Below, piece by piece: positions 10,621 through 30,992 of a DNA stretch of 64,000 bases. A program made the translations under genes and the position numbers. The stretch is from an uncultured Thermoplasmata archaeon. GTDB lineage: Archaea; Thermoplasmatota; Thermoplasmata; UBA10834. The stretch covers positions 224,001 through 288,000 of the forward strand of contig CAVRDX010000001.1 in assembly GCA_963719945.1 (NCBI GenBank), written 5' to 3'. Below the pieces are notes generated by a model, which did no database searches, was not told the origin of the DNA, and saw only the letters and a list, made by a program, of their open reading frames with translations. Every line of letters begins with the position of its first letter. Position 1 is the stretch's first letter.

Positions 10621-10673
10621 TCGTCATCCCCCAAGATTGAATCTATCTCATTATGTGCTATTTATTGGAAACG

Positions 10674-28760: not shown

Positions 28761-29498
28761 TCAGCCTTTTTTTGGTTGAATTATGAAAAATCCTTCGAAC
28801 CAATGGATCAGGTGTCCGACATCCTGGAAGACTGCTATGCTTCCGGCCTCCCTTAATATGTCCTCCGGCACATCGCCGGTCATAACAGAGATGAATGGAA
28901 CGCCCGCGTTCTTGGCACATTGGGCATCTATGACATGATCTCCGACGAATACAGTCTCGTCCTTCTCGATGCCAAGGGCATGAACCAGTCTTAGGTATGC
29001 ATCTGGGCTCGGCTTCGGCCTCGTGTCAGAGTTTCTGCATTCCAATCCATCGACCATTTCGATGAGACCAGTTCTCTCAAGGACATGTTCTGCATATTGT
29101 CTGCATCCTCTCGTCAGGATGCCTATCCTGACACCATTCGTTTTGAGCATCTTGAGCAGTTCGACCGCTCCTTTGATGGCAATCGTCTGATCCGCCCTCT
29201 CCATCTCCACCTGGTCCATTATGGCATCCAGTTCCGCAAGTCTGCTCCTGATTGCATTTTCGGGGACACTCGATGCTCTTTGATTCTCTTCGAACTGGCC
29301 CAGGATTGTTACGATGAGGTCGGAGGGGTCGTAATTGTCTCGATCCTCCCCGTATTCCGTTATCCTATCTATCACTAGTTTTCTGAACTTGCCGAAATCG
29401 ACTTCTGACTGCACGAGAGTATCGTCGAGGTCGAATATCACCGCTCTCAACGGTCTGGTGTCCTTCATGATGGGTTGACGGAATTCTCCTTGATTCAT
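28761..29498 (-). CDS. HAD family hydrolase (phosphoglycolate phosphatase-like)
   Basis: IFDLDDTL, ILTR, KPSP and VGDHVID motifs; its own TATA at about 29524-29531. Confidence 0.92.
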   Translation of the reverse strand: MNQGEFRQPIMKDTRPLRAVIFDLDDTLVQSEVDFGKFRKLVIDRITEYGEDRDNYDPSDLIVTILGQFEENQRASSVPENAIRSRLAELDAIMDQVEMERADQTIAIKGAVELLKMLKTNGVRIGILTRGCRQYAEHVLERTGLIEMVDGLECRNSDTRPKPSPDAYLRLVHALGIEKDETVFVGDHVIDAQCAKNAGVPFISVMTGDVPEDILREAGSIAVFQDVGHLIHWFEGFFIIQPKKG

Positions 29499-29619
29499 GG
29501 GGGTCCCCCAATCGGTCGTCGGAGATAAAACTCTATGGCCAGATGCTTCCAACCGATGTTATCACACATGATTCCTGGGGGAAAGGGTATATGAAAGGAC
29601 ATAGCCGATAAGGATTCAA

Positions 29620-29745
29620 GAGATTGGAAGCGGATTGAATCACGGTTTTCATATCGACCCGGATTCTGCCACTCTCCTCCCCCCACCATTCCCCCCAAGA
29701 AACGGGTCCCGGTCCGCTTTCAATCTCCGTTCCCCCCCTTTCTGT
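29620..29745 (+). ncRNA. Candidate structured small RNA with C-rich loop
   Basis: BRE/TATA (GAAAGGG-TATATGAA, 29581-29595) with no convincing ORF downstream. 15-bp stem 29620-29634/29713-29727 with one G-U; inner stem GACCCG/CGGGTC closes a C-rich loop; pyrimidine tail. Confidence 0.5.
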
Positions 29746-29933
29746 AATGATGACTGGCATGTTCCTCAATATGCGAATTCCATGTATGGTGGCCAGCTCG
29801 ATACATTGATTGAGGGGTCCCAGCGAAGTCCTAAAATAGGTTCACCTTGATTTTCCACAAGCATGGGATATTGGAAAATAGGCCATTAGAAGCCTACCCA
29901 ATAGTCCTTAAACTGCTGTTGACGGTGTTGGAT

Positions 29934-30992
29934 TTGACTGCGAAGAAGAGGAAGGCCGCAAAGACCAAGGCTAAGTCGGAGAGTCTAGATCTCGTTCAGT
30001 TCAAGTCCGAGCTGCTCAAGATGGCAAAGGAAGTCAAGGGTCAGCTTGGACTGTACATCAAGCACGTCGAATCTGGCCAGGAACTAGCCGTTGAAGCGGA
30101 CAAGACCTATCCTCTCTCCAGCGTTTTCAAGTTAGGTGTGATGGTTGAGACATTCAGGCAGATTGAGGAAGGATCGATATCTCTTGAAGAACGGATCGAG
30201 CTGGAGCCGAGGCATTATTGCATCGGCGAAGGTGTCCTACAATACTTGTCCCCTGGCCTCAAACCGACGGTCGGAGACCTTCTTTCGCTGATGATCATAT
30301 CTACGGATAATACAGCTTCCGAGATGCTGTGGAAGAGGATTGGCATCCAGAGGGTCAACATGCTTATGCGAGAACTCGGCCTCGCCAAGACTTCCATCTA
30401 CATCCCCTACAGGGAGAGTTTCCTCATGTCCATGGGCTATGGCCCGCTAAAGGACCGAACCATACCAGAGGCTGCGAGGGCATGGGCTGGCATGTCCGAT
30501 GTCGAAAGGATGAAGACTCTGAATGAGACCGAGCGCGAGTCCGCCGGCCTCTCCATAGAAGAATTCAGGACCCGATATGCGAGCATATATGGGGTCAGGG
30601 CTGAGAAGAAGTTCAAGACACAGAGGGTGTACGACGAGGTCTTTGACAATTTGAGCACACCCAGGGAGATCGGCATAATACTCGAGAAGATCCTGAAGAA
30701 TGAGATAGTCTCACCGCAGGCCTGTCAGGCAATGCTCAAGCTCCTGATGCGTCAGAAGGACTCGACTTCGATGTCCTACCTGCTGTCCCCGGATACTCCC
30801 GTCGCACTGAAATCCGGATGGGCTGCAGCTTCACTTACAAACGCAGGCATCATATTCATATCTGCGAAATCGCACGTGATCCTCTGCACATTCTTCAAGA
30901 AGATTGAGGAAGGTCATCTTGAGAAGACTCTGGACGTAGAGGCTCGGATTGCCAGAGCGGTGTACGACTACTTCTCCCGTGTCCGCCCATGA
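29934..30992 (+). CDS. Serine hydrolase of the class A beta-lactamase / PBP-like family
   Basis: SVFK (SxxK), STDN and KSG motifs; long omega-loop-region insertion; no signal peptide. TTG start inferred from the TATA at about 29906. Confidence 0.88.
   Translation: MTAKKRKAAKTKAKSESLDLVQFKSELLKMAKEVKGQLGLYIKHVESGQELAVEADKTYPLSSVFKLGVMVETFRQIEEGSISLEERIELEPRHYCIGEGVLQYLSPGLKPTVGDLLSLMIISTDNTASEMLWKRIGIQRVNMLMRELGLAKTSIYIPYRESFLMSMGYGPLKDRTIPEAARAWAGMSDVERMKTLNETERESAGLSIEEFRTRYASIYGVRAEKKFKTQRVYDEVFDNLSTPREIGIILEKILKNEIVSPQACQAMLKLLMRQKDSTSMSYLLSPDTPVALKSGWAAASLTNAGIIFISAKSHVILCTFFKKIEEGHLEKTLDVEARIARAVYDYFSRVRP

Follow-up and report, generated by a model that had tools for sequence, protein, structure and literature searches.

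Between a divergent HAD-family hydrolase gene and a beta-lactamase-fold gene, a BRE/TATA promoter is followed by inverted repeats in the 64-kb window (the whole stretch of DNA analysed, 64,000 nucleotides from an uncultured archaeon of the order UBA10834). An earlier note on this DNA read these elements as the promoter and stems of a new small RNA (sRNA) with a C-rich loop resembling an anti-Shine-Dalgarno (anti-SD) sequence. Is there an RNA gene at this locus, and what might its product do? The region from 29618 to ca. 29742 on the + strand is very probably a stand-alone gene for a structured RNA, as predicted from folding, covariation and synteny. Its family was previously unlisted and is placed here, tentatively as far as function goes, among RNAs of a known kind, the riboregulators with C-rich loops. 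The features of the locus are listed in Table 1.

Table 1. Features of the sRNA locus and its flanking genes (positions within the window)
Feature	Position	Strand	Remarks
Divergent HAD-family hydrolase gene	28761..29499	-	Pfam HAD_2, E = 7e-27; own TATA
Operator-like palindrome GTTATCA-N4-TGATT (core ATCA-N4-TGAT)	29558..29573	+	ca. -60 to -45 from predicted start
BRE/TATA box GAAAGGGTATATGAA	29581-29595	+	TATATGA at 29588-29594; TATA(T/A)G(A/T) kept in 42/42 homologues
Predicted sRNA transcript	29618..29742	+	Covariance-model match 29618-29735; C7/T tail to ca. 29742
P1 5' arm, purine-rich	29620..29637	+	15-bp conserved core 29620-29634, 3 bp more in this clade
P2, small variable hairpin	29644..29655	+	Weak here; most relatives have AAGGA-UUU-UCCUU
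P3 5' arm GACCCG (29656-61) and P3b UUCU	29656..29667	+	Pairs with CGGGTC
Apical loop	29668..29697	+	CACUCUCCUCCCCCC 29670-29684; second C6 run 29691-29696
P3b (AGAA) and P3 (CGGGTC, 29703-08) 3' arms	29698..29708	+	Folding, covariation
P1 3' arm, pyrimidine-rich	29710..29727	+	Folding, covariation in both sequence sets
C-rich 3' tail (C7, 29732-38), then short T-run	29728..29744	+	Putative termination site
Beta-lactamase-fold gene and promoter	29833..30992	+	Pfam Beta-lactamase2, E = 1e-46; BRE/TATA TAAAATAG 29833-29840

Folding and covariation of the predicted RNA

The BRE/TATA box, the outer stem, the inner stem GACCCG/CGGGTC, the C-rich loop and the C7/T tail are all present where the earlier note had placed them. 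In the outer stem, GAGATTGGAAGCGGA (29620-29634) pairs with TCCGCTTTCAATCTC (29713-29727) through 14 Watson-Crick pairs and one G-U; the sequence verifies the claim that this lone mismatch is a G-U pair on the + strand only. The TATA box lies ca. 30 nt upstream of the conserved 5' end of the RNA (AAGAGA or GAGAGA), and both the box and its spacing are kept in 42 of the 42 genomic homologues, in agreement with the proposal that the sRNA has a promoter of its own. The start of the transcript was set from the TATA spacing and the onset of conservation, and its 3' end from the T-run. The tail itself stands, but the "terminator" that it was taken for amounts only to a short pyrimidine stretch with T3-5. 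This T-run is found at most about 10 nt from the stem in most homologues and is absent in some, and a generic terminator scan found none.

The + strand RNA folds with -39.4 kcal/mol (z = -3.8), and none of 200 shuffled sequences was as good. For the - strand, folded alongside it, shuffling makes no difference (z = +0.1); the fold is significant only on the + strand, the one assigned in the earlier note. The predicted structure is a three-way junction, with P1 as a long clamp, a small P2, and a P3 capped by a large unstructured loop. Single-sequence folds of the 42 homologues, which are independent of the covariance model, nearly always gave one architecture: P1 is long and purine-rich on its 5' side, P2 is small and variable, and P3 leads to an apical loop of 25-35 nt. 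P3 is often lengthened, by UUCU/AGAA in the host genome and by GUCAG/CUGAC in the genera g2 and g3.

The stems are kept in all 42 genomic homologues and covary, as the earlier note had anticipated for a genuine RNA. Standard pairs fill 88% of cells in the alignment of these homologues, where 17 of the 25 pairs have changed on both sides, and 0 of 500 shuffles matched any observed covariation measure. When the 3' partner was slid by one column, pairing fell to 60% or less; slid registers overall reached at most 67%. The 44 metagenome copies, which were left out of model building and used as a separate covariation set, have 92% of cells paired and double changes at 14 of the 25 pairs, with both alignments fitted to the covariance model and biased to that extent towards the modelled structure. 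P1 (15 pairs) has 92% of cells paired and compensatory double changes at 8 pairs, P2 has 70% of cells paired in the genome set with three of its four pairs doubly changed, and P3 has double changes in six of six pairs.

G-U pairs are frequent – two positions in P1 have them in 20 and 10 sequences, for example. Since these would be C-A on the other strand, the transcript is the + strand RNA and a DNA palindrome is ruled out. In the P1 5' strand and in the loop, sequence conservation exceeds what pairing needs, which for the P1 5' strand suggests contacts with proteins or a further role.

The reading that there is no RNA gene here, only a DNA-level palindrome, a MITE remnant or a small ORF (the 71-aa TTG ORF or ORFs on the minus strand), draws on a 15-bp inverted repeat that recalls terminal repeats and on the ORFs of 67-78 aa that overlap the sRNA region, and is refuted by the G-U pairs and strand-asymmetric model scores, which are RNA-level signals, by the single, syntenic copy in every genome, by overlapping ORFs with no Pfam match, and by homologue lengths that cover all three residue classes modulo 3. 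These lengths run from 104 to 121 nt, with the closest relatives differing by 1 nt, so indels break every frame; the 71-aa ORF, which the earlier note had kept in view as an alternative, has no protein-level conservation. Coding was judged by indel phase, as the stop-to-stop open-frame test is uninformative in GC-rich DNA. Among more specific candidates, a MITE or other repeat was rejected on the single-copy, syntenic occurrence. A minus-strand G-quadruplex element was set aside because the G-U pattern and the strand-specific scores favour a + strand RNA, and an H/ACA or C/D guide RNA because no ACA or C/D boxes are visible and Rfam has no match.

Distribution and gene neighbourhood

The claim of novelty was borne out by Rfam 15, in which no known family was found for the sRNA. 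The comparison covered 4227 families and gave no match at gathering score anywhere in the window. Between 29500 and 29900, matches up to E = 10 were chance matches only (E 0.5-5.6, far under the gathering scores), and four diverse homologues had no match up to E = 0.05.

By BLASTN, the sRNA region was found in 11 of 11 genomes of the same genus and also in other genera. A covariance model (R1), for which 19 sequences and a manually defined P1/P2/P3 structure were used, gave exactly one full-length match in 41 of the 46 genomes of the family, spread over all four genera (g1 to g4; GTDB order UBA10834). There were no R1 matches in 135 genomes from 28 other families of the class. Of the five family genomes with no match, one has a completeness of 90% and the others of 60-87%. 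The rebuilt model (R2) agrees with R1, with forward matches of 61-113 bits and at most 27 bits on the reverse strand; it found no sRNA homologue in three genomes of the sister family (f2). The locus in the window scores 100-106 bits with the two models, and the element is single-copy in the host genome.

A pattern scan of the genomes of 185,579 species gave 19 true matches, all confirmed by the model. The labels of 17 of these point to Thermoplasmata-type or other euryarchaeal MAGs; the other two are called "Methanomassiliicoccales archaeon" and "Thermoproteota archaeon". Among the matches are the MAGs RBG_13_57_23, RBG_19FT_COMBO_56_21 and UBA9653. All three fall within the GTDB order UBA10834, which is uncultured and non-methanogenic and is related to the Methanomassiliicoccales (bioRxiv 10.1101/2020.03.09.984617). 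A scan of metagenome contigs added 44 further copies of the sRNA; contigs of this lineage (Ga0315*, Ga0153915/6 and Ga0316*) came from sediment and wetland metagenomes. Many weak model matches in JAAU* metagenome contigs (four loci) were discarded as false positives in low-complexity purine/pyrimidine tracts and do not belong in a seed alignment.

Synteny gives the ancestral order as a DUF835 gene, the divergent HAD gene, the RNA and the beta-lactamase-fold gene. In g1, g4 and some g2/g3 genomes, the beta-lactamase-fold gene lies 110-290 nt 3' of the RNA on the same strand, which is the placement expected if the RNA were a cis-acting 5' leader or riboswitch of that gene. This explanation is already largely refuted and is very improbable. 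The beta-lactamase-fold gene has a conserved BRE/TATA of its own, as the earlier note had claimed for this flank, and it stands between the RNA and the start of the gene. In one g3 genome and most of those in g2, the RNA is followed instead by a convergent ORF of at least 467 aa, whose end lies 50-85 nt past it, and there the RNA and its promoter are still intact. A riboswitch would be expected to keep its place in the 5' UTR of a gene on its own strand, and this RNA does not. Because the gene that comes next differs between genomes and often points the other way, and the beta-lactamase-fold gene is self-promoted, the RNA is predicted in silico to be a stand-alone unit.

Two observations concern the flanking genes themselves. 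Upstream of the beta-lactamase-fold gene, the promoter CCAGCGAAG-N4-TAAAATAG (29818-29840) is conserved from g1 to g4, and the alignment of homologues suggests that the true start of the gene is near 29925-29934 (GTG/TTG) and not at the TTG at 29847. The HAD gene has a TATA-like GTTTTATC at 29524-29531 on the - strand, ca. 28 nt upstream of its ATG at 29499, and is probably leaderless.

An operator shared with a zinc-ribbon operon

Ca. 14 nt further upstream of the TATA box, all 42 of the 42 homologous promoters carry (G/A)TTATCA-N4-TGAT(T/A) at a fixed spacing. Its position at ca. -60 to -45, upstream of the BRE, would fit an activator site of an archaeal promoter. The operator also lies between two divergent TATA boxes, those of the HAD gene and the sRNA, and could act on both.

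The 12-base operator motif has three exact copies in the host genome, all upstream of TATA boxes, with a chance expectation of ca. 0.2 by our estimate from base composition. One copy precedes an operon (host contig C1:486836-488275) that encodes a multi-zinc-ribbon protein of 314 aa and a winged-helix (wHTH) protein of 139 aa, the latter at 487856-488275. The Pfam matches of this operon are DZR and HTH_20/TrmB-like, with weak ArsR/SmtB similarity. The operator and a TATA box precede the orthologous operon in g1, g2, g3 and g4 (five loci), and a reversed control pattern gave no matches. In the sister family, the operator stands directly before the wHTH gene itself and also before a zinc-ribbon gene, and none of the promoters with the operator drives a C-rich RNA there. 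The 314-aa protein is narrowly distributed and confined to this order, being found in 15 of 15 genomes of family f1, one of two in f2 and none of 133 elsewhere.

The sharing of one operator by the sRNA promoter and a lineage-specific operon for a zinc-ribbon and a wHTH protein is a new observation. As the operator precedes the sRNA, this operon and, in the sister family, the wHTH gene, it points to the wHTH protein as a candidate autoregulator that would also control the RNA. That the regulon is linked to metal (zinc) is a guess, made from the weak ArsR/SmtB match and the Cys-rich products. For the sRNA family, ca. 86 sequences and a clear model of the three-way junction are available, its promoter and operator are defined, and a cognate regulator can be proposed; the family could be entered in Rfam as it stands.

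The third exact operator site in the host genome (contig C3:209950-210957) precedes a gene for a 300-aa protein made up of five or six CPxCG...WYCxxC zinc ribbons. Three sister-family genomes have a third orthologous promoter, TTATCA-N4-TGATATCCAT...TTTAAAA, which is followed by ca. 200 nt with no obvious ORF and then by a membrane-protein-like gene. This stretch may represent a long leader, or else another non-coding RNA of the same regulon.

The apical loop and its possible partners

The apical loop is the best-conserved unpaired segment of the RNA; in it, a short stretch of A/U separates the motif CACUCUCCUCCCCCC from a second C6 run. All 42 homologue folds put the C-rich motif in this loop, and its predicted mean unpaired probability is 0.94 (39 homologues matching the motif pattern). 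Every homologue's loop has CCUCC, the anti-SD core of 16S rRNA, together with C-runs, and the loop can be called anti-SD-like, as it was in the earlier note. The 3' tail of 16S rRNA reads GGAUCACCUCCU in g1, g2 and g4. Several g4 loops read (G)AUCACCUCCU, also given as (G)AUCACCUCCUCCCCC, and are identical to the 16S tail over 8-11 nt; the loop motif in g1-g3 is CAC-UC-UCCUCC followed by a C-run, and identity to the tail is partial. CCUCC is thus common to the tail and all the sRNA loops, but the sRNA is not part of an rRNA. A triple helix or an alternative pairing between the loop and P1 was rejected, as the registers misfit by eye and changes in P1 are not mirrored in the loop.

The preferred reading, to which we give a probability of roughly 45%, is that of a stand-alone regulatory RNA of ca. 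120 nt whose loop pairs in trans with SD-type or G-rich segments of mRNAs and blocks ribosomes. The sRNA would be transcribed from its own archaeal TATA promoter, under the control of the upstream palindromic operator, which is probably bound by the lineage-specific winged-helix regulator. The loop, whose CCUCC and two C6 runs would make it a look-alike of the 16S rRNA 3' tail, would then base-pair with purine-rich SD-type segments (GGAGG, G-runs), and this pairing would occlude ribosome binding and repress translation. If the loop acts in this way, it offers a handle on how initiation is tuned in archaea whose mRNAs are partly leaderless, partly SD-led and partly SD-less.

Such pairing is known from other sRNAs. 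In Firmicutes, sRNAs with C-rich regions use C-rich motifs to pair with G-rich or SD regions of mRNAs (PMC8216469, PMC6158497). RsaE/RoxS, FsrA and the loops of S. aureus RNAIII are likewise stand-alone, condition-controlled sRNAs with several unpaired C-rich motifs. Unlike RsaE/RoxS and FsrA, the sRNA in the window is archaeal and has a TATA/BRE promoter, and it has no homology to them in sequence or structure, with no match to their Rfam families even at E < 10; whereas the Firmicutes sRNAs carry UCCC in several hairpins, the CCUCC and C6 runs here share a single 30-nt loop of the three-way junction. Within the Archaea, the closest precedent for the mechanism is provided by sRNA154 and sRNA41 of Methanosarcina mazei, intergenic sRNAs whose anti-RBS loops mask ribosome-binding sites (PMC5867862). 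These differ in coming from a different phylum-level lineage, with no homology detected, and in some members of the present family the loop copies 8-11 nt of the 16S 3' tail. Y RNAs are also ca. 100 nt long, with a long stem between the 5' and 3' ends and a pyrimidine-rich loop; a Y RNA/Ro RNP was rejected because the host genome (87% complete) has no TROVE/Ro protein (PF05731) and there was no Rfam Y_RNA match. To our knowledge, archaeal sRNAs with a covariation-supported structure are few, and none is from the UBA10834 Thermoplasmata.

In the search for targets in the host genome, perfect complementarity to the loop extended over 12 nt at most. An RNAduplex ranking of 17,737 candidate starts had no outstanding target, and it is uninformative because pairing a C-rich with a G-rich sequence inflates the energies. 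The leader of the co-regulated zinc-ribbon operon has no conserved G-rich site. A match to the SD region of the MttB gene, pointed out earlier, does occur (CCCCCAAGA, 10628-10636), but at 9 nt it lacks significance. The best-looking candidate was the thermosome mRNA (5' UTR GGGGGGAGGA), which was rejected since the site is not conserved in other genera; its G6AGGA sits in a 5' UTR hairpin that lacks sequence conservation. SD 5-mers are enriched 3-4 fold upstream of starts, and each is found at only ca. 5-6% of them. With each 5-mer before so few starts, the idea that the sRNA would regulate leadered but not leaderless mRNAs is one that we infer.

These target searches, which gave no conserved RNA target, leave room for a second reading, in which the loop and the purine-rich P1 form a binding platform for a protein and the RNA is a scaffold or a titrating sponge instead of pairing with mRNAs. 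The partner could be one of the co-regulated multi-zinc-ribbon proteins or a factor that normally recognises the 16S 3' tail. Because the loop and the P1 5' strand are conserved beyond the needs of pairing, and because the sRNA and the zinc-ribbon protein genes have an operator in common, this stays a serious rival, if on the whole an unlikely one. The 314-aa protein is also nearly as narrowly distributed as the RNA, but co-distribution inside one lineage is not independent evidence, and in the sister family both protein and operator are present with no detectable RNA. The zinc-ribbon proteins, moreover, have no identified RNA-binding domain beyond generic zinc ribbons.

A different function in trans that the sequence does not reveal, for example as a sponge for a G-rich sRNA or as a sensor of a ligand or condition, is improbable. 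It would suit a conserved three-way junction that matches none of the 4227 Rfam families and a promoter that seems tightly regulated. The architecture is simple, however, with conserved unpaired nucleotides mostly in one low-complexity C-rich loop and not in a ligand pocket of the junction type, and no G-rich partner in the genome is complementary over more than 12 nt. A bolder version of the preferred pairing mechanism, and quite an improbable one, takes the loop as a true mimic of the 16S tail. An abundant sRNA, induced by the wHTH protein, would compete with ribosomes for SD sequences or sequester a factor that recognises the anti-SD tail, and translation would shift globally from SD-led to leaderless and SD-less mRNAs. 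We know of no RNA-based switch between initiation modes described in archaea.

The thermosome genes drew attention for a feature of their own. Both thermosome paralogues share a promoter block, TTATATAGAAG(C/T)NCTA(A/T)CATA, in four genera (in the host, contig C3:181977-182060, - strand, with ten further loci). In one of the paralogues, the 5' UTR hairpin is conserved in structure and not in sequence. The promoter block may be a heat-shock regulatory element.
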